A DNA stretch of 64,000 nt, from contig CAWACK010000016.1 of the NCBI GenBank assembly GCA_963780545.1, forward strand, positions 92,149 to 156,148, given 5' to 3'. Positions 3,316-62,963 of the stretch are shown in pieces. A program made the translations under genes and the position numbers. The notes under the pieces were generated by a model. That model did not search any database. It worked only from the letters and a program-made list of their open reading frames with translations, and had not been told where the DNA came from. The first letter of the stretch is position 1, and each line of letters begins with the position of its first letter. The stretch is from Candidatus Bathyarchaeota archaeon (GTDB lineage Archaea; Thermoproteota; Bathyarchaeia; TCS64).

Positions 3316-3475
3316 CTAATTTCTCGCCTTTTGAGCCCCCATTATCTGAGGGTTCGATGACGCTCTTCTATTTTATGTTAAACCTTTTTCTTTGCATCTT
3401 AGTAAGCCAGGATAAGAGCTTGAATCGATCAGTTTGTGTATGAGTCCCGACATCTTCCACGCTTACGTACGTTCT

Positions 3476-4477
3476 CTATCGCTGCGCGAGCGAAGGGTAT
3501 GTTTTTTCGATGCTCTCCGCGAGACCTCTCATGTAACCTAGGGCGTATACTTTGCCCAGCAGGTAGTAGCCCGGTTTACCCTCCTCGTATAATTCGTCTC
3601 CCTCCATCTTGGGGGCATGATCAGGTCTGATAGGGCCCTCGAATCCGGCTTCATAGTAGGCCTTCATGGCTTCGAGCATGTCCGTTGGTCCTTCACCGTG
3701 GAAGCTTTCTTGAAATCTAGGCACACTTCCAAGGACATCCCTAAAGTGGGCGAAGAAGATTTTGCCCATTCTCCCGAAGTGGCGGATCGTCGCAGGTATG
3801 TCTACCCCCATTTCGGAGAAGCAGCCTTGGCAGAAAAGTAGCCCGATATTTTTGCTGGGATAAATTTCAAGCATACGGTCGAAGGCCTCAACACTTCTCA
3901 GGATCCTAGCGAAGCCCAGTATCGGCGAGATTGGTGGATCATCCGGGTGAAGAGCAACTCTGACATCCGCCTCCTCAGCTGTGGGCAAGACGCCCTCTAG
4001 GAAATACCTGAGGTTATCCCAGGTCTGTTCTTCACCTACCACACCATACTTTGTAGGTGGAAGGTCTTTGACTAGCTCGAAGTCGAAGACCCTTGACTCC
4101 GCTCCGCCTCTGGTTCGTGATTCGGATGTGGTCATGATCTCCTCCCAGCCTGGTGGCATGTGTTGAGGTTTTATGGTTCTGATTCCAGCTCTGCCCAGGT
4201 TCTCCAGAGACTTGCAGAAGTTCTCCAGCTGCTCATTTCTGCCCGGTAGCCCCAACATTATCTTATCGATCTTCGGCCCATCTTCTAGTACATCTAGCCT
4301 TAGACCAAAATTCTCGACTCGCCTCTTCATTTCAACTAGATCCTGATATCCCCAGACCTCACCTTTGTTTGATGGTCCGTGACCTATTACATCAGTGCAA
4401 CCAAGCTGCTTTACAAGTCTCAGACTTTTGGTGGAGTAGCAGTCACCAAAGATCTCCGCAAACCTCATCTTCACCAT
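3476..4477 (-). CDS. uxuA: Mannonate dehydratase-like (UxuA family, xylose-isomerase-like TIM barrel)
   Basis: 333 aa. N-terminal ...LGCTDVIGHGPSNKGEVW... and the overall pattern resemble UxuA. It sits next to an RraA-like aldolase and an MFS permease, giving a sugar-acid catabolism context. Confidence 0.55.
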   Translation of the reverse strand: MVKMRFAEIFGDCYSTKSLRLVKQLGCTDVIGHGPSNKGEVWGYQDLVEMKRRVENFGLRLDVLEDGPKIDKIMLGLPGRNEQLENFCKSLENLGRAGIRTIKPQHMPPGWEEIMTTSESRTRGGAESRVFDFELVKDLPPTKYGVVGEEQTWDNLRYFLEGVLPTAEEADVRVALHPDDPPISPILGFARILRSVEAFDRMLEIYPSKNIGLLFCQGCFSEMGVDIPATIRHFGRMGKIFFAHFRDVLGSVPRFQESFHGEGPTDMLEAMKAYYEAGFEGPIRPDHAPKMEGDELYEEGKPGYYLLGKVYALGYMRGLAESIEKTYPSLAQR

Positions 4478-5310
4478 CCTCTCAGCACCGCCTGATGTCC
4501 TTCAACCATTCTTGGAAGTCTTTCTCTATTCGAGGCGTCCAGGACTCGGTCGATTTCGCCTGATGAGTATCGACCTTCGCTGAGTCTCAACTTGCCGAAT
4601 CGGTCACGCATACGTATATCCTCGGACCTCTCGACTACCTCCTTCGCTAGATGTGGAGGGATGAAGATTACTCCCGTTGCTGTCCCAAGAACGACGTCTC
4701 CAGGCAACACAGTGGCGCTTCCTATACGGATCGGTGTGTTGATGCCAACCAGCGTCATCTCGTTGATCGCTGTTGGGTGTAATCCTCGGCAGAAAATAGT
4801 GACATCTTTCAACTTTGACACGCCTTGATAATCTCGGATTCCTCCATCGATCACTGCGCCTGCCTTTGTCTTCGCCATTAAGGATGTCGAGAGGTTGTCG
4901 CCGATGAAGGTCCCATCTTTGATCTTGCCATAACAGTCCACAACCATGACGTCATCTTTTTGTAGCGTGTCAATAACCCACGAGTTCTGGCCACCTATCC
5001 TACCCTCTGCTTTACCGATGTTCTCTATGATCTCGTTTAAGTCTGGTCTACTGGGAACCATCCAAGCCGTGACTGCTCTACCAACGAGGTTTCGTCCGGG
5101 ATTTGTGCAGATCCAGTTACCCTCAAATTGATTATCGTAGCCTCTCGCGTGTAACACTCCCCACGCCTCCTCGGTTGTAACTAGCTTCATGCGTTCAATC
5201 AGGTCGTCGGGTACCTTCGGTCGACCATCGGAAAATCTTTCGAAAGGGTTCAGGCGAGTTAATTCAATAATCGACTTTGAGGGGTTTACTATATACATTG
5301 AATAATACAC
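4471..5310 (-). CDS. RraA-like / 4-hydroxy-4-methyl-2-oxoglutarate aldolase family protein
   Basis: Motif ...VVDCYGKIKDGTFIGDNLSTSLMAKTKAGAVIDGGIRD... fits the RraA-family G-x-A...G..G.V.DG..RD pattern. It overlaps the uxuA-like start by 7 nt, so the two are probably an operon. Confidence 0.55.
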   Translation of the reverse strand: MYYSMYIVNPSKSIIELTRLNPFERFSDGRPKVPDDLIERMKLVTTEEAWGVLHARGYDNQFEGNWICTNPGRNLVGRAVTAWMVPSRPDLNEIIENIGKAEGRIGGQNSWVIDTLQKDDVMVVDCYGKIKDGTFIGDNLSTSLMAKTKAGAVIDGGIRDYQGVSKLKDVTIFCRGLHPTAINEMTLVGINTPIRIGSATVLPGDVVLGTATGVIFIPPHLAKEVVERSEDIRMRDRFGKLRLSEGRYSSGEIDRVLDASNRERLPRMVEGHQAVLRGW

Positions 5311-5360
5311 TTAAGCTCCACGTTTAAGAAATCCTTTGGTTTTATTGCGCAAACTCAAAG

Positions 5361-6662
5361 CTAGACCTCTATCTTCCGTGGTTCTCTTATCCTGTAACGC
5401 GCATAGATGGCGACGGGAATCATACCCACCGCCATGACTATGAAGGGCATACTAGGAGCGACCTCGTAAAGAGCACCTCCTATGATTTGGGCGATGGCAA
5501 GCGGAACAAAGAGGAGTACTCCTCCACCCCATATGGTTCCCTGAATATCGATATAGAAGCTCCCGCTTCCTACCGCGGATGTGACGCGGCCCCTCCGGTT
5601 CCTAGGCGTAAAGTCGGCGAGGAGGGACTGAAAACCGGGCAAGAGGAATGCATTTACAATGGCCACCAAAACAACAAAGACCATGAGAGTATAACTGCTG
5701 TGTAGAAACAGGAAGATGATGGAGAAGAGAGGTGCAAGAGTTAACAGTGGTATGAGTAGCTTCTTTCTGCCGATCCTATCCATCAGCCTCCCCGCTGGTA
5801 TGGCAAGGAGCATGTTGACACCCCCCTGTAGCGCTGAGGTTAACCCCCAGAAAATGACACTTACCCCTATGAAAGTGGTCGCGTAGACTACCCAGAAGGA
5901 TGAAGCTATTCCTATAAAGAACACCTGCATCACTTGTAACACTGCTAGAGCCCTAACTTCGGGGGGCATCCACCTGAGGGTCTCTATGAAGCTCCCGTAA
6001 CTGTCCTTTAAGAATCCGACGAAGTCTCGGTAGTTTATTTTCTGTATTTGCTTGGGATCGAGAGTCTCTTTGAGAGTAGCGAGCCTTAGGAAGGCGACGA
6101 TTATGCCTGCTCCGAAGCCGGTGAGGTAGATGAGGTTCATAGCGGGTATGATACCCATTTTGTCGACTAGGTAGCCTCCTATGAAGGGAGAGACGACTCC
6201 TAAGGCGGCGGGTATGCTAATTGCAAGAGCGAAGCCCTGTCCTCTCATCCCCACAGGCATCGAGTCGGCCATGAGGACAGTCAGGATTGGAGAGTAGAAG
6301 AGCACGAAGTTCTGGAAGAAGCTGGCGAAGGCAAGTGTCTCCCAGTTGGGGGCATAGGCGAAGGGGATGAAGCTGAAGGCGTAGACAAAGGTTGCTAGAC
6401 TGACGAGTCGGACCCTCCCCTGCTTATCTGCGATGTAGCCCCCCAAGGGGTAGAGGAAGAGGCCTGCAAGTGCCGCTGCAGACTTTACGAACCCTATGTC
6501 GATGGGGGACCCTCCAAGCTTCTCTATGTAGAGAGGCAAGTAAGTGGTTGGAATGTTAGTTGTGAATTGCCAGATGCAACTGCAGACTACGAGCCAGAGG
6601 AGATTGCCCCTAAGAAGCCCTATTCCGAACTCGCGCTTTGTGGATGGACTCCCCTCGGCCAT
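5361..6662 (-). CDS. MFS transporter (putative sugar-acid permease)
   Basis: 433 aa with 12 predicted TM segments of MFS style. It lies directly upstream and co-directional with the RraA-like and uxuA-like genes. Confidence 0.75.
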   Translation of the reverse strand: MAEGSPSTKREFGIGLLRGNLLWLVVCSCIWQFTTNIPTTYLPLYIEKLGGSPIDIGFVKSAAALAGLFLYPLGGYIADKQGRVRLVSLATFVYAFSFIPFAYAPNWETLAFASFFQNFVLFYSPILTVLMADSMPVGMRGQGFALAISIPAALGVVSPFIGGYLVDKMGIIPAMNLIYLTGFGAGIIVAFLRLATLKETLDPKQIQKINYRDFVGFLKDSYGSFIETLRWMPPEVRALAVLQVMQVFFIGIASSFWVVYATTFIGVSVIFWGLTSALQGGVNMLLAIPAGRLMDRIGRKKLLIPLLTLAPLFSIIFLFLHSSYTLMVFVVLVAIVNAFLLPGFQSLLADFTPRNRRGRVTSAVGSGSFYIDIQGTIWGGGVLLFVPLAIAQIIGGALYEVAPSMPFIVMAVGMIPVAIYARYRIREPRKIEV

Positions 6663-6988
6663 TGTTCTGCCTTCGGTTGACTCCCCAATGAAGTGTATCG
6701 ACTATTTTAAACAGTCGAAATAGAAGCTGCCGAGTTGGATTTTATACCCATTAAAATGATTGCTATTTCGGATCAGTGCGTGCGATATCGGAAGGAGAAC
6801 TCGCAAATAACGCGCGTTACGATAACAACCTTAAGAGTAACCACTAAAACCGATGATGTTCTTGAAAAACATAATGCTCATTGATTGTTTATTAATGGTT
6901 AGCTCCATGGAATATCAACATTTTCTTAGCCAGATAATATTTGCAAGCGCGAGTTATGCGCATGTCTCTCGAGAGTTTAGGCTAGGTA

Positions 6989-19177: not shown

Positions 19178-22100
19178 TTAATTTGTGGCTATTGATAGGA
19201 TTTCTCCTATCTGACTTATTCTCTTTTCACCTAGCATTTCCTCCATCTCCGACTCGAGTATTTTGTTGGTTTTCGTTGTCTGTCTAGCCCAGAAGATGTT
19301 GACGGTTTCCAATAATAGGGATTCTCGGCTTAGACCCATAGAGTGGCTTAGAATAAGTAACATCGCTGCCTGTATCTCCTCCGATGAAATGTATTCGAGG
19401 GGCCTGATCTCCGCTTCGGACCCGTTCACAGGGATCCTCACTTTGATTGCTGTGGAGTTGTTGGGCCAGAGGAATTCTCCGCGTCTTTGAAATCTGCCTT
19501 TTTTAATCATATCCTCAATCGTCGCCCAGTAAGCTTTGTGGAAGGAGGACGGGGCAGGTCTTAGGTTGATAGCCTTGTTAATACGTTTGAATGCGTACTC
19601 TTGGTGTATAGGTCCCTCTATATGGACTAGTTTAGGTAGCAGATTTCTTAGTTCGAGGTGGTAAAGGTCTAGGTAGAGTTCTCTTTGACTTTGGGGAATT
19701 TTGTTGAAGGTTTGTCTTGGCTCGAGGGATGCTCTCAGGTACGGCTCCGAGCCGGGGAGTTCATCACTTCTTTTCTCGGTTACTTTTTGTTCAAGGATTC
19801 TTTTTTTTTGAGCGGTTCTCTTGAGTTGGCTGCTTTCGGGGCGTTTTTCGTATGTTTCAGCCCACTTGAGTGCTTGGTCGAGGCGCTGTATCTCGGTTGA
19901 TCGTCTCTGAACCCACTCGGGCGACCAAATTCTATGGAGGTTCCACCCCATTCCTTCGAGTACCTGAGCTCTGAGTCTGTCCCTGTCCCTCGCTGTCGCT
20001 GTTGATCGGTAGCCCTCGCCATCGAGGATTATTCCGAGTATGAACTTCTCAGGGTTCTCAGGAACCTTTACACCTATGTCTACTCTCAGTGAGCTTTCCC
20101 CAACCTGGAGCACTGCCACGTAGCCGAGTCTGCGGATCTCTTCAGCGACTTCTTTCTGTATTTCTGATTGTATTGTCACTTCTCCTTCTAGTTTCTCAGG
20201 TTTTGTTGTCTGCTCCGTGTATGCCAGATAGTTGTGCAGACATTTCACTCCAAAGGATTTTGTTGAGGATAAGTCGATGTCACTTGACTTGATGGAGCTA
20301 ACAAGTATAACCTTCTCGCGTGCCCTCGTCACAGCGACGTTCAGCCTGCGCTCCCCGCCCTCCATGTTTAGTGGGCCGAAGTTCATGGTCATGACGCCTC
20401 CCTTATCATAACCATATCCCACGCTGATCACCATGACATCTCTCTCATCTCCTTGAACGTTCTCGAGGTTCTTGACGAAGAAACCTCGGAGGCGGTCCTC
20501 CTGCAGGAGCTTCCCATACTCGGGGCTCTTAGCTAAGCGGGTCTCGATCTCGTCCTTTACTGTGTTCATCTGGCTGATGCTGAAGGTCATGACTCCGAGG
20601 GATTTTTCTGGGTGCTCTTTTAGTTGTCTGAACACGATGTCAGCAACCACTTCTGCCTCCCTCAAATTGTTGCGAGCCCCTCCGCGGTCGTAGACTCCGT
20701 CTGGAACATATGTGAACTCTATTCCGAGTCCGCCTCCCTTATCAGTGGCTGAGGGGAATAGGATGAGTTTGTCGTCGTAGAACTCCCTGTTTGAGAATAC
20801 GATGAGTGAGTCGTGTTTGCTCCTGTAGTGCCAGCGAAGCATGCTGACTGGGAGTCCCATTCCCATACACTCGTCCAGGACGCTGTCATAGACCCCCACT
20901 TCGTCGCTTGCCTCCTCCCACTCGAAGTCATTTTCAGCAACGTACTGGAAAAATGGTGTAGGTGGTAGCTGCTTGTTGTCGCCGGCCACAATCAGTGTGT
21001 CCCCCCTGTATATGGATCCCACCGCGTCCTCGGTGAATATCTGTGAAGCCTCGTCGAAGACTACGAGGTCAAAATGTAGCCGCTCGGGGAGGATGAACTG
21101 GCTAACGGAGATAGGGCTCATAAGGAGGCAGGGTTTAAGCCTTCGAATGAGGTTGGGTATTCTGTTGAAGAGGTGGCGGAGTGGCATCTGCCTCCGCTTC
21201 TTGGCCGCCTCCTTGAGGAGGATGGTAATCTCAGAGTCGGGGGCCTCAACGAAGACTCCTTGGGGCTTTTTAGTGTTAGCTGCTTCGATGACTTTTTTCG
21301 GCGACTCCTCTATCAGTCTTGCGTCGAGGGATCTGAAGTCATCGACTGCCTGATCATGTTCCTTCGACCTGAAAGAGCCAAGATTTGAGTCCTCCTCCGC
21401 GAAGTGGTTTAGGAGGCCGCTGTAGATGGATTTCCTGTAGATGTCGATTAGTAGTTCTCTGTTGTACTTCTTCTCAACGAGTTCTTTGACGAGGTTTCCT
21501 AGTCCCTCTTCTATGAGTCTCTTAAATGAATTATTGTAATCGACCCAAGCTTGAAGATCATCTATCCTTTGGGCAAGTTTCTTCGAGACGAGTAAAACCT
21601 CATCGACACTGAGGCTCTGGGCTCGTTTATCCCAGAGGGGGTAGCTGAATCTTGAGTTCAGTTCGTCGATTAGACGATAAATTTCTCGGAGGTGCTTCTG
21701 GGTCTCAAGTTTGGGTCTCCCAAGTGCGGGGTCGGTGGCGAAGTTGATGGTTTCCGCTGAAGGCTTCAGCGGTAGTGCCTGCAGGAGGCTGCGTGTCCAG
21801 TTTATGGCTCCAATTACCTTCAGCCAGTCGGTGGAAACCCCCTCATAGAGTCTCCCATACGTCTCTCTTTGTTGGGGAGCCAGCTCAACTTCAGCTTCCT
21901 CGAAGACTCGTAGCATTTCCGTCTTCCTGATGTCTGAGAGGAGCCGGGAGAGGGTCTTCGGGGGGTCTATGATCGCTGTAATGAGGGCAGGTTGAATGTT
22001 TTCTCGGAGGATGTCTAATCGTTTGTTGAGCTCAACAGCCCATTCTTTCAGGTGATGCAACTGAATGTTCATAATCCTAGTTTCTTCGCCTGGAAGATTC

Positions 22101-24724
22101 TCAGGTAGGATCACACGCAACGGTTTTTGGGCTGCTCTCCAGCTCTGAAGTGAATTGCCTAAGCTTTGGGATTTGGTAAGGAGTTCTTCACTCGGTTTCG
22201 TGGCGACGCAGAGGTTGTCTTTCAGCAACTTCGGGGCCCTTGAGGCGCCTATAAGGCGCAGGGTCTCCCTAGCGGTCTTCATGGCTTCTCCGATCACTTC
22301 GAAGTCAGGGTTCTCTTCCTTGTAGTAGGACCCTAGTCTGCTTTTGGCTTCATCTTGCTCGGAGGCGATTGTTTTTGTCAGCTCCTTCAGCTCTGATGCC
22401 ATCTTGAGGTCCTGTAGGATTTTGGTTGGTATCTCGCCAGTCTTTGTTACTCTTGATATTTCGCGTCTGATGTTGTAGTAACTCGGTCTCAGGTACCTAA
22501 GGGGGGATGACCCTGGTCCCTCAAAGAAAGTAATCAAGGTTTGAAGATCTAGGGTTGTGATCTCGTCTTTGTAGGCGGCTAGTTTTACCCTGAGTTCGTC
22601 TCTTCTCCGGTGTTCTGTCTTGGCTTTATCGAGATATTTCTCCGCCTGTTCAAGGCTCGTTTTGTCGAGCCAACTTCTTTCAGGTCTGATGGTTGCTTTA
22701 CAGAACTCTGTGATGCGTTGGAGTCGCCTTGCCCTGTTGATTGTCTGTGGGTCGGTGGGTAGTCCGAGGATCTCTGAGATCTTTTCTATTTGTTCCCCCC
22801 ATCCGTCAGCGTCCCTTATTGTTTGGTCTAGGAATTTACCTAGGTCGTCTATTCGTTTTAGGAGGCCCCCGTCACCCTTCGGGTTGGGTTTGAGGAGCTC
22901 GGCGGCCCTCTTCCACGTTTCCTCGACTCTGTCGGCCGTACCTCTTGGGAGTGCCCTGAATCTGTTGTCGTATCTGCTTTCAAGGTTGGCTCGTATGGTC
23001 CAGTACTCGTCCCACGCCCGCTTATGCGCTTCAGCCTCAAGCTGGAGTTTGGTGAGGTCCGTGTCCTGGAGCCATCTTGATGGGGGGTAGGGTGTGGATT
23101 CGATGATTTTTGCAAGTTTCTGGGTTGAGTCGTAGTCGTCGAGGCTCTTCGGAGCTTCGAGTTTGAGCTTTTCGCAGTAATAGTGGGTTTCCAGGCTGAG
23201 CTGTTTAGTTGAGTCGATTAGTGTGGTGAGCAGGTTGGTCCACTCGGTGCGGACATCTATAGTGTATGTTGTAGATTTGCAGCCTTTCCAAGGGAAAGAT
23301 GTGCCCTCCTCTACAACGACCCAAGAGTTCAGGAGGTGCCTCAACTGTTCCTCAAGGCCGAAGATGTTCTTCTGGTCGAGGGTGCTGAAGCTCGGGTAAC
23401 CAGATGGGATGTCTGGAATTGACTCGAGCTTGGAGATCTCGTTCAAGAGCTTGTAAGCACTTGTGTTTGATGGTTGCCTCGTCTTGTGTAGGGCCTCTAC
23501 GTAGGTGTTTAGCTGGGTTCTTCTATGCTTCAGTCGGTCTATCTCATCCTCGCTCATCCCTTTGCCGGGTTTTAGGTGCTCCGTGAGGGCCCTGCTTAAT
23601 TCGTTGATGACTTCGCGTTTATTCGCCTTATAGCTATGGAGTTCGAGACAGTATTCGTCGAGGTCTTTTTCCTTCAGACGGTTGTAGACTACCTCGAGGG
23701 CTGCCATCTTCTCGCTAACGAATAGAACACTTCTGCCGGCGGCGATGTATTCGGATATTATGTTAGCTATTGTCTGGCTCTTTCCCGTGCCTGGTGGGCC
23801 GTGCATCACATAGGATTGTCCCCTGAGTGCGTACTGGATGCAGAGTTGTTGGCTGCTATCAGCATCCAAAATCTGGAATGTTTTGCCGGGGTCCACGACG
23901 GTGTCCAGGTCCTCAACACTCGGTAGGCCTTTCTGGATGAGTCCCTCTACGGGTACACCGGCTAAGGCTCTAAGTGTGGGGTGTTCTGTGATGCGGCTTA
24001 GGTTGTCAGTCAGATCTTGATAAATAGCGAGTTTGGCGAAGCTGAAGAGTCCGAGGTATACGGTGGGCTCAACTGTCCACCCAAGTTCCTTCACGACTTC
24101 TTGAATGGCTGCCAGGTAGCTTGATGGTGTCTGCTCCTCTTCCTCTGGGAGGGTTGGGAGGTCAACACTGTGCTCGTACTTCAGCTTTAGCATTAAGGCT
24201 GGGTTGACGAGTATCTCATCCTCTATTGGTGGTATTTTGATCTGGTATGGTTCCCGTGTTGAGTCTCTGGTGAGTTCGACTGGGGTCAGAAGCAGGGGTG
24301 ATACGACTTCCTGTTTAGTATCCTTCTCTGTCCACTTCAACTGCCCGAATGTTATGTAGAGGATCCTTATGCCTCGTTCTGTGTACTCTGATTGGGAGCG
24401 TCTGCTCAGGTTTCTCAGGGTTCTGTCGAGCTGGTTTGGATCGGACCAGCCCGGTGTGATCTCTGTGCTCTTCGGCGGCCTAATTTTGGGCGGCGTATCT
24501 CCAGGCCTCGTAAGGGGAGGTTGCCTGATCTCCCAGCCTCTCCCCCTTACTACGAGTCGGCCGTACACTGTTTCCATATCTGGGGAGACTATTGTGAGGT
24601 GTGAGGTCTTGGTTGGTTGGAAGTAGATCGCCTTGTTCCTCTTTGTTAGGTCTATTAAGCGGAGCTTCCAGTCCTCTACGCGTCTGGCTACCCTAAGGGA
24701 TTCTGGAGATTCCAAGAAGACCAT
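19178..24724 (-). CDS. Giant DUF4011 / SF1 (Upf1-like, AAA_11+AAA_12) helicase / Vsr(DUF559)-like endonuclease / DUF3320 protein with ~700-aa coiled-coil insertion; Hhe-like candidate defence protein
   Basis: 1848 aa. The N-terminal 290 aa are DUF4011-like (...ILYITFGQLKW...SPLLLTPVEL...). Walker A is VMHGPPGTGKSQT, motif II DLVVFDEASQI, motif III TLIVAGDNKQLPPT, and motifs V/VI are ENVQGDERDVMVISVGY and RLNVAVTRAREKVILVSS. A PD-(D/E)xK/Vsr-like segment (...LRVDIGV...ILDGEGYRSTATARDRDRLRAQVLEGMGWNLHRIWSPEW) follows. The C-terminal 250 aa are DUF3320-like. Confidence 0.85.
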   Translation of the reverse strand: MVFLESPESLRVARRVEDWKLRLIDLTKRNKAIYFQPTKTSHLTIVSPDMETVYGRLVVRGRGWEIRQPPLTRPGDTPPKIRPPKSTEITPGWSDPNQLDRTLRNLSRRSQSEYTERGIRILYITFGQLKWTEKDTKQEVVSPLLLTPVELTRDSTREPYQIKIPPIEDEILVNPALMLKLKYEHSVDLPTLPEEEEQTPSSYLAAIQEVVKELGWTVEPTVYLGLFSFAKLAIYQDLTDNLSRITEHPTLRALAGVPVEGLIQKGLPSVEDLDTVVDPGKTFQILDADSSQQLCIQYALRGQSYVMHGPPGTGKSQTIANIISEYIAAGRSVLFVSEKMAALEVVYNRLKEKDLDEYCLELHSYKANKREVINELSRALTEHLKPGKGMSEDEIDRLKHRRTQLNTYVEALHKTRQPSNTSAYKLLNEISKLESIPDIPSGYPSFSTLDQKNIFGLEEQLRHLLNSWVVVEEGTSFPWKGCKSTTYTIDVRTEWTNLLTTLIDSTKQLSLETHYYCEKLKLEAPKSLDDYDSTQKLAKIIESTPYPPSRWLQDTDLTKLQLEAEAHKRAWDEYWTIRANLESRYDNRFRALPRGTADRVEETWKRAAELLKPNPKGDGGLLKRIDDLGKFLDQTIRDADGWGEQIEKISEILGLPTDPQTINRARRLQRITEFCKATIRPERSWLDKTSLEQAEKYLDKAKTEHRRRDELRVKLAAYKDEITTLDLQTLITFFEGPGSSPLRYLRPSYYNIRREISRVTKTGEIPTKILQDLKMASELKELTKTIASEQDEAKSRLGSYYKEENPDFEVIGEAMKTARETLRLIGASRAPKLLKDNLCVATKPSEELLTKSQSLGNSLQSWRAAQKPLRVILPENLPGEETRIMNIQLHHLKEWAVELNKRLDILRENIQPALITAIIDPPKTLSRLLSDIRKTEMLRVFEEAEVELAPQQRETYGRLYEGVSTDWLKVIGAINWTRSLLQALPLKPSAETINFATDPALGRPKLETQKHLREIYRLIDELNSRFSYPLWDKRAQSLSVDEVLLVSKKLAQRIDDLQAWVDYNNSFKRLIEEGLGNLVKELVEKKYNRELLIDIYRKSIYSGLLNHFAEEDSNLGSFRSKEHDQAVDDFRSLDARLIEESPKKVIEAANTKKPQGVFVEAPDSEITILLKEAAKKRRQMPLRHLFNRIPNLIRRLKPCLLMSPISVSQFILPERLHFDLVVFDEASQIFTEDAVGSIYRGDTLIVAGDNKQLPPTPFFQYVAENDFEWEEASDEVGVYDSVLDECMGMGLPVSMLRWHYRSKHDSLIVFSNREFYDDKLILFPSATDKGGGLGIEFTYVPDGVYDRGGARNNLREAEVVADIVFRQLKEHPEKSLGVMTFSISQMNTVKDEIETRLAKSPEYGKLLQEDRLRGFFVKNLENVQGDERDVMVISVGYGYDKGGVMTMNFGPLNMEGGERRLNVAVTRAREKVILVSSIKSSDIDLSSTKSFGVKCLHNYLAYTEQTTKPEKLEGEVTIQSEIQKEVAEEIRRLGYVAVLQVGESSLRVDIGVKVPENPEKFILGIILDGEGYRSTATARDRDRLRAQVLEGMGWNLHRIWSPEWVQRRSTEIQRLDQALKWAETYEKRPESSQLKRTAQKKRILEQKVTEKRSDELPGSEPYLRASLEPRQTFNKIPQSQRELYLDLYHLELRNLLPKLVHIEGPIHQEYAFKRINKAINLRPAPSSFHKAYWATIEDMIKKGRFQRRGEFLWPNNSTAIKVRIPVNGSEAEIRPLEYISSEEIQAAMLLILSHSMGLSRESLLLETVNIFWARQTTKTNKILESEMEEMLGEKRISQIGEILSIATN

Positions 24725-40572: not shown

Positions 40573-40874
40573 AACGGTTCGCATTCGCTGTCTTAAGCTT
40601 CGTCTCAGTATAAGTGGTTTTGTTGTTTTCGGTCATTTAAGTCACGACTCTTGATGGGTCTGGGCTTTTATCCCATTTTATGCTAGGAATATTCCGATTG
40701 TGATGCTGATTATTAATAGGAGATAATTAGTGGCATCAACCTGAGGCTCCTCAGGCACCCGCGCTTGCGAAGATGGTAAGTTTATTAAAGGCATCATAGC
40801 TGTTTTGTTAAAGCGATTCGCGCGCGACTACTTCGTAGAGTATGCGTTCACGGCGCTGTGAACAGGGTGTAAAG

Positions 40875-41942
40875 ATGTCTCAACCTAGTGTACCAGGGAA
40901 AATCATAGGTGTCTTAACAGGCGGAGGAGACGCTCCGGGCTTAAACGCTGTGATTCGAGGAATAACCCTCGGCGCTCATTCACTCAACTACGATGTGATC
41001 GGGTTTAGGAATGGCTGGGCTGGTCTCCTTGGTGTGGGAGATGCTCTTCCACTTAATCCGAGGGGGTCGAGGGTATCCATATGATAGGTGGGACGATCCT
41101 CGGGACCTCTAGGACTAACCCATACAAACATCAGAACGGGATACATGAGTTGAGTCAGTAATTTGAGGAAGCATCACGTAGATCACTTGATCGCGATCGG
41201 GGGAGAGGACACGTTGAGCGTTGCCAAGAACCTGGTCTCGGAAGGCGTAGATGTTGTTGGTGTACCCAAGACGATCGATAATGATGTAAATTGTACAGAC
41301 TATACGGTTGGCTTCGACTCTGCACTTAATGTTGCTGCCGAGGCTATATCGAGGGTACACACGACTGCGAGTAGTCATAGGAGAACCATGATCGTTGAGG
41401 TGATGGGGAGGCACGCCGGCTGGTTAACCTTGTACGCAGGAATTGCTGGTGGGGCACATGTGATTCTTGTTCCAGAGCGGTCGTTTGATCTCGATGAGGT
41501 TTGCAGCGTTGTAAGTGAGAGAAAGGATATGGGGCTCGAATACACCATCATCGCTTGCAGTGAGGGGGCGACGACAAGAGACGGTGAGTTGATTCTGAGG
41601 AATGGGCAGGTGGATGAGTTCAACCATGTGCAGCTGGGTGGAATTGCTGAGCAACTCGCCCCACTGATAGAGAAGAGGACGGGTGTGGAGTGCAAGAGCG
41701 TTACGCTTGGTTACCTTCAGAGGTCGGGGCCCCCGTCTGCGTTCGATCGGGTGCTGGGGACGAGATTTGGTTTTTCGGCTATCGAGGCTGTCGATAGGGG
41801 GGAATTCGGCAAGATGGTCGCCCTCAAGGGCACGGAGATAGTCACCGTGGGGTTGGATGAAGCGCTCGCAAGCCTGAAAACTGTCCCAGAAAACATGATA
41901 GATGATTTTGAACGATACTTAAGGATGGATCAACTAGGGTGA
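40875..41942 (+). pseudogene. pfkA: 6-phosphofructokinase (PfkA family) with two compensating frameshifts (~41062-41066 and ~41150-41156); ORFs 40842-41084 and 41163-41942 share frame 3
   Basis: The N-terminus KIIGVLTGGGDAPGLNAVIRG is the ATP/PPi-PFK signature. The substrate motif ...VEGIHMIGGTILGTSRTNP... is readable only in frame 2, between 41069 and 41158. Downstream motifs are ...LIAIGGEDT...VGVPKTIDNDV...MGRHAGWL.... Confidence 0.6.
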
Positions 41943-43149: not shown

Positions 43150-44205
43150 ATGCATAAAGAAGCTTATCATAGACTGGCTCACGCGCTGGATAAGTTACCT
43201 AATGGTTTCCCACGGACAAAATCTGGAGTAGAAATCGAGATACTGAGACACATATTCAAACCCGATGAGGCCGAGATTTTATCCCTTCTAACTAGAGACA
43301 TGCAGTCCTGCAGCGAGGTAGCCCTCAAGGCGAAGCTTGATGAAAAAGATGTCGAGCAGCAACTATCCAATTTGGCTAAGAGGGGATTAATTTGGAGTGG
43401 TGTCATGAATTGTAAACCACTTTACAGACTCGCACCTTGGATAGTCGGGGTTTACGAGTCACAAGTTGGGTCGATGGACCACGAGTTCGCACATTTGGTG
43501 GAGGAGTACTTCCAGGAGGGTGGCTTGGAGGAAATTATGAAGCCTCTGCCCTCCATTCACAGGGTGGTTCCAGCCCAGAGCGCTGTCAAGTCGGAGTGGA
43601 TCCTACCATTCGACGACGTTAAGGCTGTAATCGAATCGAGTAAAACATTTAGTGTCACAGATTGTATCTGCAGGAAGCAGCAGGACCTATTAGGCAACAG
43701 GAAATGCGACTTTCCTCTTGACGTCTGTATGGGGTTCTCGAAGTATGAACGCCCACCCCGTAAGGGGGATATTTCCAAGGAGGACGCTCTTGCCCTGCTA
43801 GACAAGGCTGAGAAGATTGGGCTGGTTCACACCGTAAGCAACGTGATGGAGGGACTAACCTACATGTGTAATTGCTGTGGCTGTTGCTGTGGCATCCTAA
43901 GGGGTGTCACCGAGTTTGGCGTAAAGAACTCGGTAGCAGTGGCCAACTACTTTGCATACATAGATCCTGATACCTGCATCGGGTGTGGGTTATGCGCGAA
44001 GAGGTGTCAGGTCAAGGCAATCCAGCTTCGGGAGAATGTTGCTGTAGTTGACTTGGAGAAGTGCATAGGGTGTGGATTATGTGCAACGGGGTGTCCAGTG
44101 GGTGCTGCGAAGCTCCAGCTGAAGCCTGAGGATAAGATTGTTGATCCTCCAAAGGATTTTCGTGTTTGGGAGGATAAGCGATTACGGAATAGAGAAATTC
44201 CATAA
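43150..44205 (+). CDS. Cys-rich Fe-S protein: N-terminal winged-helix-like region, C-x-C-R-K...C...C module, unusual CNCCGCCCG motif, then two CxxCxxCxxxCP ferredoxin motifs
   Basis: The modules are ...DCICRKQQDLLGNRKCDFPLDVCMGF..., ...YMCNCCGCCCGILRGVTEFG..., ...CIGCGLCAKRCQV... and ...CIGCGLCATGCPV.... A paralog lies at 62274-62963. Confidence 0.6.
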   Translation: MHKEAYHRLAHALDKLPNGFPRTKSGVEIEILRHIFKPDEAEILSLLTRDMQSCSEVALKAKLDEKDVEQQLSNLAKRGLIWSGVMNCKPLYRLAPWIVGVYESQVGSMDHEFAHLVEEYFQEGGLEEIMKPLPSIHRVVPAQSAVKSEWILPFDDVKAVIESSKTFSVTDCICRKQQDLLGNRKCDFPLDVCMGFSKYERPPRKGDISKEDALALLDKAEKIGLVHTVSNVMEGLTYMCNCCGCCCGILRGVTEFGVKNSVAVANYFAYIDPDTCIGCGLCAKRCQVKAIQLRENVAVVDLEKCIGCGLCATGCPVGAAKLQLKPEDKIVDPPKDFRVWEDKRLRNREIP

Positions 44206-44283
44206 AATTTTCTCGTTATAATTCAAGCTATTCCTTTAGTTTATGGTTAAGAGCCACATGGAGTTTATGCCTCTCGTGAGCTT

Positions 44284-44532
44284 GTGTGCTTATGCTTTAA
44301 TAGAACAATTCATATTCACACTGTCAAAGCGGGATTAAATTGGATATCCCCCAAAAGTTGTATCGATCGAAAAAGAGGTTGGCTCGGTGGTGTCTGTGGT
44401 GGGATTGGTGAATATCTTAACTTGGACCCCACCATCATTAGGGTGATTTGGGGCGTCTTTTCGTTGGCATTCGGCATTGGTATAGTGGCTTACATAATAG
44501 CCTGGCTCTTGATTCCTAAAAGTCCAAACTGA
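44284..44532 (+). CDS. PspC-domain membrane protein
   Basis: ...RKRGWLGGVCGGIGEYLNLDPTIIRVIWGVFSLAFGIGIVAYIIAWLLIP fits the PspC domain consensus plus a TM helix. It uses a GTG start. Confidence 0.6.
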   Translation: MCLCFNRTIHIHTVKAGLNWISPKSCIDRKRGWLGGVCGGIGEYLNLDPTIIRVIWGVFSLAFGIGIVAYIIAWLLIPKSPN

Positions 44533-44663: not shown

Positions 44664-45155
44664 ATGATGAAGTTCAATAATGATCCCCATTTCGTTGGTT
44701 ATAAGATATTAAAGACTAGACAGAGGGAACAGTTAGAATCCTTCGAGGTATGGGCTTTCAATAACCGGTGGATTAGCTTTCATGTCAACCACTACGACTG
44801 GTGGATGTTCCCAATCGATGAGCCGAGCAGATACGATTACGCTTGGACTGTGTACGAAGGCGATGTAGCTGAGCTCGTGAAGGATGAAATATACATCCGT
44901 AATTATCTGCGCGGAGCCGAGTTACTCGCCCTCTCATGGGGGTGGGACCTGTATAAAGGGAAACAGATCGTTGGCCCCGATAGGGATCAGGTCTGGCAGG
45001 ATTGGCCAATTAGGCTATACAAGGCGTCAAAGTCGCTGAGGCTGTTTGGTTTCGACCTCCTCTTTGAGTCGATGAGGACCTATGCGAGGAACTTGATTGA
45101 GAATGGTGAAAGCATGGAGTATAACGGGAGGGACCTCGGCATCCTATTCCAATGA
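44664..45155 (+). CDS. Hypothetical protein, possibly OGFr-N-like conserved domain family
   Basis: ...HVNHYDWWMFPIDEPSRYDYAW... resembles the H-x-Y-I-Q-W-x-F-P core of the OGFr_N-like family. This is a tentative call. Confidence 0.35.
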   Translation: MMKFNNDPHFVGYKILKTRQREQLESFEVWAFNNRWISFHVNHYDWWMFPIDEPSRYDYAWTVYEGDVAELVKDEIYIRNYLRGAELLALSWGWDLYKGKQIVGPDRDQVWQDWPIRLYKASKSLRLFGFDLLFESMRTYARNLIENGESMEYNGRDLGILFQ

Positions 45156-45585: not shown

Positions 45586-46518
45586 TTAGGGGAAGTAGTC
45601 GATCTTTACTTCTCTAGCCACCATATCTAACTCATTTTGCTCCTCTCTGGTGAGTTGTATATCGGCTGAATGCGCGTTCTCTTCGGCCTGAGCCGCGTTC
45701 TTCGCTCCGGGTATTGGTATAACGATGGGGTTCGAGGCGAGCCAACTGAGAGCCACCTGTGCATTCGTTTTTGAGTGTCTTCGGGCAATCTCCGCAAGGT
45801 GGGAGTTTAGCCTCTCCACCTGATCGATGTTCCTGGGTGAGAAGAGGCGGTTGGATCCCCTGGGATCGCCACTTGGGACGGCGTCTCTTCTGTACTTACC
45901 CGTTAAAGCGCCCTGCGCTAGTGGGCTCCAGGCCATTATCGAGATTCCCTCCCTCTTACAGTAGGGAAGCACCTCCTCCTCTATGTTCCTCTGAAGCATG
46001 TTGTATCTCACCTGGTTGGAGACGATGTCGGTTCTAGATAGGTATGAGCGGGCCTCCTCTAGGTCCCTGACAGCGAAGTTGCTGACTCCTATCGCCCTGA
46101 TTCTCCCCTCCATGTAGAGCTTCTCGAGCGCCCTCATCGTCTCCCTTAGGGGGATCTGCTCCCACGGGTCCGGCCAGTGGACTTGATAGAGATCGATCTC
46201 CTTTACACCGAGCCTTGAGGCACTCGCTAGGCATGCTCTCTGAAGTTCATCGTATCTTAGGTGTGCGTCTTTCACTTTTGTTGCTATCACGAACTCGTCG
46301 CGTCCTATCTCCTTCACCGCACGGCCGAGAACCTCCTCGCTATGTCCGTTTCCATAGGCCTCAGCCGTGTCGACGAGGTTTACGCCTAGCTCGTGGGATC
46401 GCTGTATTGCCTTGGTGATGGCTTCATCGTCGCCCTTCCACTCTGCGCTTGCCTGCCAGACACCTAACCCGATTTTAGAGACCTTGATATCGCTTTTTCC
46501 GAGAAACATGTTGTCCAT
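45586..46518 (-). CDS. Aldo/keto reductase
   Basis: ...LVDTAEAYGNGHSEEVLG..., ...IATKV..., ...IGVSNF... and ...IPIPGAKNAAQAEEN... are AKR family signatures. Confidence 0.85.
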   Translation of the reverse strand: MDNMFLGKSDIKVSKIGLGVWQASAEWKGDDEAITKAIQRSHELGVNLVDTAEAYGNGHSEEVLGRAVKEIGRDEFVIATKVKDAHLRYDELQRACLASASRLGVKEIDLYQVHWPDPWEQIPLRETMRALEKLYMEGRIRAIGVSNFAVRDLEEARSYLSRTDIVSNQVRYNMLQRNIEEEVLPYCKREGISIMAWSPLAQGALTGKYRRDAVPSGDPRGSNRLFSPRNIDQVERLNSHLAEIARRHSKTNAQVALSWLASNPIVIPIPGAKNAAQAEENAHSADIQLTREEQNELDMVAREVKIDYFP

Positions 46519-59709: not shown

Positions 59710-62180
59710 TTGGCTCCCTCAGGTAGACCCATAGAGATTCTACACGTCGACGATGACCCAATGGTACTCGAGTTCGTCAAAGAGTTCATAAAGCCTCTAT
59801 ACCCGGAAATGACCTTCACAACCGTTGAGTCTCCCAAAGCCGCCCTCGAGCTGCTAGACAAAAGGAGCTTTGACTGTATCATTTTAGACTACAAGATGCC
59901 CGAGATGGATGGCTTAGCCTTCGCCGCGAAAGTTCGTGAGTTCAGTGACACCCCGATCATTCTCTACACGGGGCAGGGAAGCGAGGAGGTAGCGGAACAG
60001 GCATTTGCAGTTGGGGTGGATGATTACATAAGGAAGGAGAATAACCCGGCCCACTACCAGGTTCTTGCGAAGCGGATCGCCTCCGTCGTGGAGAAAAAAC
60101 GGATGGAGGCCAGGAACTATACTTTGGAGAAGAGCACTAGGGAGAAGCTTGAGGCCCTCCATAGGCACGTCACGGGCCTCGCGAACTTCGACACACTCGA
60201 GGGAGTAGCGGAGTATAGCTTCGACATAATTGAGAGGTTACTCGGCTACACTGTGGGATCATTTGGCGTCGTCGAGGATGAATATCTGAAGTTCATCTAT
60301 GCTAGAACTGTCCCATTGGAACACTTACCGCAATATGCCTCTGAACGGAAGAGGGATCACAGTCAGAGCCGTCAAAACCGGCGAGACCCAAATGGTATCG
60401 GATATCCGCTTTGACAGGGATTTTGTGCACCACATTGAGTTATCCGACCTTATATCCGAGCTCGATGTTCCAGTGAAGATCGGAGGTAAAGTAGTCGCTG
60501 TGATAAATCTGGAGAAGGAGCGTCTTAACGCCTTCTCCGATGAGGATAGACGGATAATCGAGATTCTGGGAGAACACGTGGCATCAGCAATTTCCAGAAT
60601 CGAGCATCTTAAGGCAATTAAGGTCTCCGGGGAAACATATCGGAGGCTTCTTGATTCATCTCTTGACTCAGTGCTCCTTTTTTCTGGCACAAAGATCCTC
60701 TACGTGAACCGAAACATGGCTAAGCTCCTCGGCTACGATGATGTATCAGAGCTTATCGGTCAGGATATGACGAACACCGTAACGGATGATGAGAAGGAAC
60801 AGATAAGACAAAGGACGTTGAGCAGGCAGAGGGGAGAGCCTCAGCCTGATAGGTATGAGCTTAAGTTACTCAGAAAAGACGGGAAGATAGTTGAAGCTGA
60901 AGCTGCCGTTTCACTGACGGAATACGAAGGCAAACCGGCTGTCCTGTCATTCGTGAGGGATATCTCCGACAGGAAACGCTACCAGACGAAGCTGTTTCAG
61001 CTTCACGAGACCGCTAAGAAGCTCGCAGGAGCTTCAACTAGAGACGAAATATGGGACACAGCCATAGAAACTGTGAGCCAGATACTCGGCTTCGACTTCG
61101 CCGGGATCGGAATGGTCGAAGGGAACGCTGTCAAGTACATCAGAGCTGTTGGCGTCGATCTCCCAAAGGACTGGAGAATAGACCTCTCCAAGCCAAGCAT
61201 AACCTCTAGGACAATTGAAACGGGAATACCGCAGCTCATCAGAGACACGAGTCTCGACCCTGATTATTTATCTGGGCCAGGGATGGAGAGACGTTCCTCC
61301 GAGCTGGCGACACCAATCATAGTCGATGGGCGTCCAATCGCTATATTGAACATTGAGGGCAACCAGCCATCCATGTTTACTGAGGCCGACCTGAGCCTCA
61401 TACAAATACTTGTTGGCCAAATCTCCTCGGCTCTAGATCGGGTAACTCACTATGAGGAGGATTTCAAAAGAAGGGAGGCTCACCAGCGGAAGCTTCTCGA
61501 GGGTATGGATAGGATGAGCAGCATGGTCCGCCATGACCTCAGGGGGCCACTTCAGACGATTCAGTCGGCCTCCTATATGTTGCGACATAGACCTGATCGA
61601 GCTGAGGAACTTACGCGGAAGATAGATGAGGGTGTAGATTACGCGGTGAGGGTACTCAACGATCTGAATACTATGACTAAGCCCGAGGCGCTAAACAGGG
61701 TCTCGACGAATCTCAGTGAACTGGTTGAGAAGTCCATTGATAACGCGAACATCCCGGCCACTTTAAGGGTTGAGAAGAGATCTGCCTCTCCTAAAACTGG
61801 AGGTTGACCAGTATCGAATCCGTCGATGCATTGACAACCTAATAAAGAACGCAGTCGAGGCAATGCCAGACGGGGGCACTCTAACGTTGAAGGTCGAATC
61901 TATGGATGGAATGGCCCTAATTACGGTAAAGGACACTGGGCGGGGAGTATCAGAGAAGGCTGCCAGAAACATATTCACACCTTTCTATACGACGAAGCCA
62001 ATGGGAACCGGCCTCGGATTGGCTATTTGCAGGCAGGTAGTTGAAGCTCACGGTGGGAGTATTACGTTTGAGTCAAGAGTAGGGGAGGGTACGGAGTTTA
62101 AGGTGGCTCTGCCACTGACGGAGCGTGCTCCATCCGACGGCGAAGGAAGTGGTGAAGTTTCCTTGAGAAATCCGCATTAG
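59710..62180 (+). pseudogene. Hybrid sensor kinase: REC - GAF - PAS - HisKA - HATPase_c, broken into three ORFs (59710-60414, 60299-61807, 61770-62180) by two single-nt frameshifts
   Basis: The REC domain (ILHVDDDPMV...DCIILDYKMPEMDG) uses a TTG start. The GAF domain is split across the first frame change at about 60325-60337 (...YLKFIYARTVPLEH | ...YRNMPLNGRGITVRAVKTGETQMVSD). The PAS domain is ...SVLLFSGTKILYVNRNMAKLLGY.... The H-box is MVRHDLRGPLQTI. The N/G boxes (IDNLIKNAVEAMPDGG...KDTGRGV...GTGLGLAIC) follow the second shift at about 61745-61770. Confidence 0.6.
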
Positions 62181-62273: not shown

Positions 62274-62963
62274 TTAGTCTTTTTTTCTCACTATTTTGAT
62301 TGCGTTGGTTGGACAGGTGCTTGCGCATAGACCGCAGCCGAAACAGTAATCACTGCTTAACGAGATCGAACCGGCGACTAGTTTTCTTGCGCCGAATTGG
62401 CATCGATCAACGCAGAGGCCACACCCAGTGCATATCGAATCATCCGTGACCGATGTCATTTCAGATTTAAGCGCCTGCGGCGCGATGCCGTAGCGGGTTA
62501 TCCCGCCAAGCACGTGACAGCAGCAGGAGCAGCAGCTACATATTATGTCAGGCCTGCCTGCGTTTTGGCTATCGTTGTAGATGTATGCCATGTGAACGAG
62601 GCCCGCATCGTGGGACTTTTTCAAGACAGTAAGTGCCTCATCCTTCGCAACCTCGCGGGGGTGGAGATCCTTATTTTTTTCTGATGTGAGGAACTGCTCC
62701 GCCTTCTCGTCGAGTCCTATGCAGGTTTCGAGTGGATTGTCGCAGTGTTTGAGCTTCTTGCGGCAGCTGCATTCCATCAGCGATATCTTCGTAGCGTCGT
62801 TTAGAAAGTCTTTAACTTTATCGAAGTTCAGGACCACATGATCGGCTTTTATTTCGACGTTAATCGGAACGACTAGTCTGGATTTTATCTTTATTTCCCT
62901 TTCCCTTAACTCTTCGCGTGACCAGTCGTTCTCGAACTTGTATCCTTGTTTTCTGTGGGCCAT
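62274..62963 (-). CDS. Cys-rich Fe-S protein, paralog of 43150-44205 (lacks the N-terminal wHTH-like region)
   Basis: ...ECSCRKKLKHCDNPLETCIGL..., ...IICSCCSCCCHVLGGITRYG..., ...CTGCGLCVDRCQ... and ...CFGCGLCASTCPT... are the same modules in the same order as the 43150 protein. Confidence 0.6.
   Translation of the reverse strand: MAHRKQGYKFENDWSREELREREIKIKSRLVVPINVEIKADHVVLNFDKVKDFLNDATKISLMECSCRKKLKHCDNPLETCIGLDEKAEQFLTSEKNKDLHPREVAKDEALTVLKKSHDAGLVHMAYIYNDSQNAGRPDIICSCCSCCCHVLGGITRYGIAPQALKSEMTSVTDDSICTGCGLCVDRCQFGARKLVAGSISLSSDYCFGCGLCASTCPTNAIKIVRKKD

Follow-up and report, generated by a model that had tools for sequence, protein, structure and literature searches.

A conserved ten-cysteine module fused to a ferredoxin domain in two paralogous, putative iron-sulfur redox proteins of a Bathyarchaeota archaeon

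Iron-sulfur (Fe-S) enzymes with unconventional cysteine arrangements have repeatedly yielded new clusters and new chemistry. Examples are HdrB with its non-cubane clusters, the double-cubane cluster proteins, and ferredoxin:thioredoxin reductase, whose site pairs a cluster with a disulfide. The CCG domain of HdrB has the signature Cx31-39CCGx35-36CxxC and is usually duplicated, giving ten cysteines (2 x 5), and the catalytic subunit of ferredoxin:thioredoxin reductase has the signature CPC-x16-CPC-x8-CHC. Here we describe two genes, open reading frame (ORF) A and ORF B, in a stretch of 64,000 nucleotides from a Candidatus Bathyarchaeota archaeon (assembly GCA_963780545.1, contig CAWACK010000016.1, positions 92,149 to 156,148 of the forward strand). 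This whole stretch is referred to below as the window, and coordinates are those of the window unless another locus is named. Both genes encode a cysteine-rich domain, termed here the Cys10 module, followed by a 2x[4Fe-4S] ferredoxin domain. This organization is reminiscent of the HdrB/HdrD-type CCG proteins (heterodisulfide reductase, DsrK, GlpC, LutA), which also combine a non-ferredoxin cysteine-rich Fe-S domain with a 2x[4Fe-4S] module. Like the Cys10 module, HdrB has adjacent cysteines in its motif and ten cysteines in total, and it is found mainly in anaerobes. By analogy, the likely common logic would be that a special cluster receives electrons one at a time and uses them for two-electron chemistry on thiols and disulfides. 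Ferredoxin:thioredoxin reductase, in turn, has several C-x-C tripeptides and an adjoining conserved histidine, as does the module, and both may hold a [4Fe-4S] cluster flanked by redox-active cysteines. The ferredoxin that serves as electron donor is a separate protein in that system, whereas it is fused in the family described here. The module also differs from the reductase in having ten cysteines rather than seven, an alpha/beta fold of about 140-160 residues and no thioredoxin-type partner encoded nearby.

The two genes and their parts are arranged as follows:

43150-44205, forward strand: ORF A, 351 amino acids, with winged helix, Cys10 module, 2x[4Fe-4S] ferredoxin domain and conserved C-terminal tail in that order
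43150-43464, forward strand: winged-helix domain of ORF A (residues 1-105)
43471-43953, forward strand: Cys10 module of ORF A (residues 108-268), an alpha/beta domain
43663-43728, forward strand: first cysteine group of ORF A, C172-x-C174-R-x10-C186-x6-C193, CICRKQQDLLGNRKCDFPLDVC
43819-43830, forward strand: GLVH motif of ORF A (G224-H227)
43867-43890, forward strand: cysteine hexad of ORF A, C240-N-C242-C243-G-C245-C246-C247, CNCCGCCC (residues 240-247)
43954-44124, forward strand: 2x[4Fe-4S] ferredoxin domain of ORF A (residues 269-325)
43975-44007, forward strand: first ferredoxin motif of ORF A, CIGCGLCAKRC (residues 276-286)
44062-44094, forward strand: second ferredoxin motif of ORF A, CIGCGLCATGC (residues 305-315)
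62274-62963, reverse strand: ORF B, 229 amino acids, with Cys10 module and 2x[4Fe-4S] ferredoxin domain and without a winged helix
62460-62963, reverse strand: Cys10 module of ORF B (residues 1-168)
62721-62771, reverse strand: first cysteine group of ORF B, C65-S-C67-R-K...C74...C81
62592-62603, reverse strand: GLVH motif of ORF B (residues 121-124)
62517-62540, reverse strand: cysteine hexad of ORF B, CSCCSCCC (C142-C149)
62277-62459, reverse strand: 2x[4Fe-4S] ferredoxin domain of ORF B (residues 169-229)
62400-62432, reverse strand: first ferredoxin motif of ORF B, CTGCGLCVDRC (residues 178-188)
62313-62345, reverse strand: second ferredoxin motif of ORF B, CFGCGLCASTC (residues 207-217)

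Both reading frames are intact. In a BLASTP comparison ORF A and ORF B are 31% identical over 204 columns (E 2e-25), and the alignment spans the module and the ferredoxin domain in identical order. This bears out the original prediction, made from the DNA sequence before our analysis, that the two are paralogous Fe-S proteins sharing one module. A search of the six-frame translation of the 64-kb window with a hidden Markov model (HMM) of the module found no copies besides these two. Full-length homologs of ORF A (350-352 amino acids) align over 97-100% of ORF A at 59-97% identity, while those of ORF B are 220-250 amino acids long and 48-59% identical to it, and one public protein (P0121) is identical to ORF B. 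All 18 cysteines of ORF B lie inside the motifs. An AlphaFold2 model of the whole of ORF A has a mean predicted local distance difference test (pLDDT) score of 85 and a predicted template modelling (pTM) score of 0.76. ORF A and ORF B are best read as cytoplasmic multi-cluster Fe-S redox proteins, members of a large family that has generic annotation only.

The consensus of the module is C-x-C-(R/K)-x(5-10)-C-x6-C ... GLVH ... C-x-C-C-x-C-C-C, over about 140-160 residues. The spacing first proposed for the upstream group, RK-x(7-11)-C-x5-C, is wrong and should read C-x-C-x(6 in ORF B, 11 in ORF A)-C-x6-C. It had also been proposed that the motif would lose its interest if the cysteine hexad were not conserved among homologs. 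The hexad is in fact kept across a very large family: of 240 close homologs, 237 show the pattern C.CC.CCC without deviation, as do 123 of 149 representatives at 50% identity, some of the latter being fragments, which indicates that the motif is not due to chance. Conservation was also assessed position by position in 209 diverse relatives from archaea and bacteria aligned to the module HMM, using the numbering of ORF A. All ten cysteines of the module are kept in at least 95.7% of these sequences. C172, C174, C240 and C242 are kept in 100%, C243 in 99.5%, C186 and C247 in 99% (with Asp replacing C247 in one sequence), C193 in 98.6% (Glu in three), C245 in 96.7% (Asp in six) and C246 in 95.7% (Ser, Ala or Gly in nine). 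Outside the cysteines, residue 175 is R or K in 99%, and G224, P141 and H227 are kept in 97%, 93% and 89%, respectively. The rare replacements of cysteine are mostly carboxylates, C246 being the exception. Carboxylates are the usual alternative ligands of iron. From general Fe-S biochemistry, carboxylate replacements together with tolerance at a single position are the pattern expected of metal ligands.

As far as Pfam, NCBIfam and the PDB show, the Cys10 module is an undescribed domain. No Pfam or NCBIfam family matches it in ORF A or ORF B, and in a Pfam scan of 116 rows that included the two module segments of the window the only matches were of the Fer4 and winged-helix types. A phmmer search of ORF A against all PDB chains matched ferredoxin domains only, and the module profile found nothing real among the same chains, its one match being to a repeat protein and spurious (E 0.63). 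The view that the module cannot be placed in a known family is therefore upheld, since profile searches recognise only the C-terminal 2x[4Fe-4S] domain. An AlphaFold2 model of the module alone, made with 116 sequences (pLDDT 90.1, pTM 0.83), predicts a single domain with the topology beta-alpha-beta-alpha-beta-alpha-beta-beta-alpha, and no structural neighbour of this model was found among solved PDB structures. Our search of the literature on the motif, on cysteine-rich Fe-S families and on fusions of winged helices with ferredoxins found nothing relevant. The two closest described systems were considered as candidates and rejected. For the HdrB-type CCG domain (PF02754) there is no CCG...CxxC arrangement, no profile match and no structural similarity; the absence of any CCG match from the window proteins and from the 116 rows agrees with the distinction from HdrB that had been drawn at the outset. 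For the catalytic subunit of ferredoxin:thioredoxin reductase the signature is absent and there is neither a Pfam nor a structural match.

The second domain, by comparison, is readily identified. With the Pfam models Fer4, Fer4_21 and Fer4_9 it shows two motifs, a score above the curated threshold and the ferredoxin fold, and in ORF B the Fer4 match has an E value of 7e-13. Two motifs of the form CxxCxxCxxxCP had been claimed for each protein; both motifs are present, but the first ends in C-Q and only the second in C-P. Homologs are named 'ferredoxin', '4Fe-4S binding protein', RnfB (in the Joint Genome Institute, JGI, data), PreA subunit, PorD or HdrA2. None of the specific names is borne out by the corresponding models. 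The RnfB model (TIGR01944) reaches 42.1 bits, short of its cut-off of 68.7, and aligns only through profile positions 100-169, its ferredoxin part, and Pfam reports no RnfB-type N-terminal Fe-S domain in the window proteins. PreA (score 29, cut-off 335), HdrA2 (48, cut-off 1100) and the PorD-type models (30-33, cut-offs 60-171) align with the ferredoxin domain alone. Because the NCBIfam models align only there and far below their cut-offs, the family names ferredoxin, RnfB, PreA and PorD reflect the ferredoxin domain alone.

The near-invariance of the ten cysteines, their mostly carboxylate replacements, the lack of cysteines outside the motifs in ORF B and the confidently modelled single-domain fold together suggest that the module ligates metal. 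The ten cysteines would hold either two further Fe-S clusters or one cluster together with redox-active thiols. The cysteines could be shared out as two cubanes and a thiol pair, as two five-cysteine non-cubane clusters like those of HdrB, or in other arrangements. One reading of such a protein is that it is a plain electron carrier, a polyferredoxin whose module has an unconventional motif for one or two ordinary [4Fe-4S] or [2Fe-2S] clusters and does no more than lengthen the electron wire between varying partner enzymes, without chemistry of its own. The fusion to a standard ferredoxin domain is consistent with this, as are the variety of neighbouring redox enzymes with no fixed partner, the frequency of paralogs and the database names 'ferredoxin' and '4Fe-4S binding protein'. 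However, ten strictly conserved cysteines exceed what two cubanes need, and invariant C-C and C-C-C runs with a conserved Arg/Lys and His beside the cysteine groups are unusual for a simple wire. A domain of about 140-160 residues whose predicted fold is unlike that of any known carrier also argues against it. By comparison with clostridial-type 2x[4Fe-4S] ferredoxins and polyferredoxins, the ferredoxin domain makes up only 16-25% of the protein here. We consider a plain carrier unlikely.

The C-x-C and C-C pairs, the conserved His and Arg/Lys, the Asp/Glu replacements, the fused electron wire and the non-ferredoxin motif suggest instead a specialised site, and these features favour reductase chemistry. 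The reading we prefer, tentatively and as somewhat short of an even chance, is that of a ferredoxin-wired redox protein in which the module holds one or more extra Fe-S clusters, possibly non-standard, and works as a reductase along the lines of HdrB or ferredoxin:thioredoxin reductase. In this mechanism the ferredoxin domain would act as a wire for single electrons between an external partner, a ferredoxin or a reductase, and the cysteine-rich site, where the substrate would be reduced as in HdrB/HdrD or in ferredoxin:thioredoxin reductase. A cluster with neighbouring or extra cysteines would turn two one-electron deliveries into one two-electron reduction, of a disulfide, a persulfide or another small electrophile. 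Several observations weigh against this proposal. It is from the conservation of its residues that the module appears to bind metal, and from the logic of the motif that the likeness to the two reductases would follow, while neither its sequence nor its predicted fold is similar to those of HdrB or ferredoxin:thioredoxin reductase. A winged helix such as transcription factors have is present in half of the family. Dedicated enzymes with a defined role in a pathway usually show some conserved linkage, and no general conserved partner gene was found across 80 loci from GTDB species genomes, whose ORFs were clustered by all-against-all BLAST; our neighbourhood sample also included ten metagenome homolog contexts.

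The winged helix raises the possibility that ORF A is a one-component transcription regulator that senses redox state, oxygen or metal, the state of its Fe-S centres controlling DNA binding by the winged helix, with ORF B as a sensor-only relative. The N-terminus of ORF A does have the winged helix-turn-helix fold, as originally proposed. Its match to Pfam TrmB is below threshold (14.4 bits, cut-off 25.6, E 0.034), but nine relatives match TrmB (best E 1.4e-7) and four match MarR_2, and one homolog is labelled by JGI as an ArsR-type regulator fusion; the matches of the relatives and this label favour a regulator. A near-complete module is present in 139 representatives, of which 70 (about half) have the winged helix, 17 have a shorter N-terminal extension and 51, like ORF B, have none. 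A regulator is also favoured by genes that occur singly, with promoter-like and terminator-like signals of their own, and by frequent paralogs. The neighbours are mixed, with reductases of the detoxification type among them (old yellow enzyme, nitroreductase, aldo/keto reductase), a pattern often met with regulators.

The suggestion that the winged helix binds DNA, on the other hand, is not supported by its surface properties. In 43 sequences, ORF A and its orthologs, the domain is acidic (mean isoelectric point 5.7, mean net charge -2.4), and in 70 diverse long forms the median isoelectric point is 5.5, with 26% above 8. Helix 3, the putative recognition helix, is near neutral and among the least conserved parts, mostly less than 50% conserved even between orthologs at 60-80% identity. 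The best conserved parts are an N-terminal LPNGFPRT arm, which forms the conserved surface, and a connector, RLAPxxVGxYExQ. These properties do not match a basic, conserved recognition helix and wing. The inverted repeats upstream of ORF A are AT-rich and promoter-like only, and no palindrome is common to the upstream regions of the orthologs that might serve as an autoregulatory operator. DNA binding by an acidic domain with an unconserved recognition helix is thus possible but not favoured, and the winged helix, which is optional, would more likely serve a structural role or bind a partner than recognise specific DNA sequences. The 51 representatives without it keep everything else. Since the ferredoxin domain is present in 118 of the 139 and the winged helix is absent from 51, the module and the ferredoxin domain appear to be the functional core. 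Ten cysteines and two ferredoxin clusters also far exceed the redox machinery of known Fe-S sensors. Winged-helix Fe-S or thiol regulators such as the Rrf2 proteins IscR, NsrR and RsrR, or the ArsR/SmtB and MarR proteins, have one cluster or metal site in or next to the DNA-binding domain, whereas in ORF A an acidic winged helix is followed by a module of 160 residues, distinct from it, and by a ferredoxin domain with two clusters. Finally, small regulators of the MarR, TetR and MerR types recur among the neighbours, several loci having one of their own adjoining the family gene. We regard a regulator as rather unlikely, even if it has to be taken seriously.

The family is large. In a search of 1.84 billion representative proteins the module-only profile (alignment A2) matched 2,590 clusters at 50% identity with E <=1e-3, and 1,379 with E <=1e-10. 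Metagenomes contain thousands of homologs of ORF A. The 120 best share 59-97% identity with it and, with few exceptions, are about 350 amino acids long; the few of them that are named to an organism are assigned to Candidatus Bathyarchaeota, which agrees with the origin of the window. A pattern scan of GTDB, with one genome per species, gave at least 331 matching stretches. Among the matches listed, the archaeal carriers are Bathyarchaeia and the Asgard lineages Heimdall-, Promethe- and Jordarchaeia, and the bacterial carriers are Anaerolineales and Dehalococcoidia (Chloroflexota), Desulfobacterota (including Desulfocarbo indianensis, Desulfosudis oleivorans and Syntrophobacter), Bacillota (including Desulfosporosinus and Dethiobacter), Bacteroidales, Acidobacteriota, Pirellulales and Spirochaetes. 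The lineages in this list are overwhelmingly known as anaerobes, and this distribution fits an oxygen-sensitive cofactor.

The tightly linked neighbours of family members are heterogeneous, and the informative ones are mostly redox enzymes of organic substrates. A gene resembling old yellow enzyme or 2,4-dienoyl-CoA reductase adjoins the family gene in three loci, and other neighbours encode aldo/keto reductase, nitroreductase, short-chain dehydrogenase/reductase, acyl-CoA dehydrogenase and proteins like epoxyqueuosine reductase (QueG). A second copy of the family is found at most 10 kb away in about seven loci. In three of five independent bathyarchaeal contexts, among them the window, the gene of ORF A type has an aldo/keto reductase gene no more than about 1.5 kb away:

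45586-46518, reverse strand: aldo/keto reductase of the window
3057-4214 of locus L004: aldo/keto reductase
2805-3665 of locus L006: aldo/keto reductase

The enzyme in L004 bears a ferredoxin-like extension. The proximity of these genes may be due to chance. In one branch of the family, a sterol carrier protein 2 (SCP2) domain is fused N-terminally to the family protein (P0373, 446 amino acids, seen on 18 contigs), and an SCP2 domain is also encoded by the gene immediately upstream of a family member (3527-4597 of locus L044). SCP2 binds lipids and hydrophobic ligands, and this association hints at a hydrophobic ligand or substrate.

A different kind of linkage was found in four loci from metagenome-assembled genomes of Desulfobacterota type, where hypA lies directly downstream (25-170 bp) of the family gene:

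4650-6969 of locus L029: family gene linked to hypA, with hypB also adjoining, downstream
3923-6150 of locus L076: family gene linked to hypA, with hypB also adjoining, upstream
4668-6128 of locus L031: family gene linked to hypA
4671-6125 of locus L044: family gene linked to hypA

The family members in these loci share only 31-57% identity, so that the linkage recurs in divergent members, and the position of hypB differs between the two loci that have it. The linkage hints at nickel or another thiophilic metal, but in a small minority of loci only. The module could accordingly be imagined to bind nickel or such a metal instead of Fe-S or besides it, whether in a Ni-Fe-S site like that of carbon monoxide dehydrogenase/acetyl-CoA synthase (CODH/ACS) or as a metallochaperone or storage protein linked to HypA/HypB. 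C-x-C tripeptides with a conserved His would suit this reading, and the cysteine runs resemble those of metallothionein. However, the hypA linkage concerns only four of the 72 family genes in the fetched loci and is absent from all bathyarchaeal loci, the window included. Among the part of the neighbouring ORFs that was scanned in the hypA loci, no hydrogenase or CODH gene is annotated, and the module has no similarity in sequence or fold to CODH, ACS, HypA or metallothioneins. We consider this explanation very unlikely. A bolder extension of the preferred reductase reading is that the module binds a type of cofactor not yet described, for instance an Fe-S cluster of non-cubane structure or higher nuclearity, or a Ni-Fe-S site that HypA/HypB would serve in some lineages. 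The family would then constitute a new class of reductases that depend on ferredoxin and are widespread among anaerobic bacteria and archaea (Bathyarchaeia, Asgard). We put this forward as a speculation that is probably not correct.

In the window itself, ORF A is preceded by a gene for class II fructose-bisphosphate aldolase, then a hairpin with a T-run, then an AT-rich promoter-like stretch. The PspC-domain gene reported on its 3' side (44284-44532) is real (Pfam PspC, E 2e-21) and is separated from it by a gap of about 80-135 bp with a T-run at its start. ORF B is, as described, tail-to-tail with a hybrid sensor kinase, being convergent with a REC-PAS-GAF-HisKA-HATPase kinase. Both neighbours had been offered as functional hints. 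Neither recurs in homolog loci, the PspC gene being absent near four ORF A-type homologs and from the recurring clusters of the 80 loci. Since the linkage to PspC and the sensor kinase is not conserved, we take it to be incidental and without functional weight.

Other observations concern the genes around the two loci. On the 3' side of the PspC gene an ORF of 163 amino acids (44664-45155, forward strand) has no Pfam or NCBIfam match. The sensor kinase (59710-62180, forward strand), with REC, PAS-GAF-HisKA and HATPase parts in that order, is split into three overlapping ORFs in three frames, 59710-60414, 60299-61807 and 61770-62180, which implies two frameshifts. A phosphofructokinase gene (40842-41942, forward strand) is broken by in-frame stops at about 41082-41087 and about 41151, and the expected segment 'GGTILGTSRTNP' is encoded in another frame between the two stops, indicating two compensating frameshifts that may be assembly indel errors or mark a pseudogene. 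Taken together, the broken phosphofructokinase and the split kinase suggest assembly indel errors, which leave ORF A and ORF B untouched. Elsewhere, 19178-24724 on the reverse strand is a very long ORF (1,848 amino acids). No tRNA genes and no Rfam families at the gathering score were found in the whole 64-kb window.

The broad kind of protein to which ORF A and ORF B belong, Fe-S redox proteins with a ferredoxin domain, is known. What appears to be new is the widely distributed and strikingly conserved module. It occurs in thousands of clusters in globally abundant anaerobes of sediments and the subsurface, where it is annotated merely as '4Fe-4S binding protein', and it is a good candidate for an unusual metal cluster. 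With 229 residues and every cysteine in a motif, ORF B offers a compact and directly testable target. A defined function for the family would improve metabolic reconstructions of Bathyarchaeia and Asgard archaea, groups with few or no cultured representatives.

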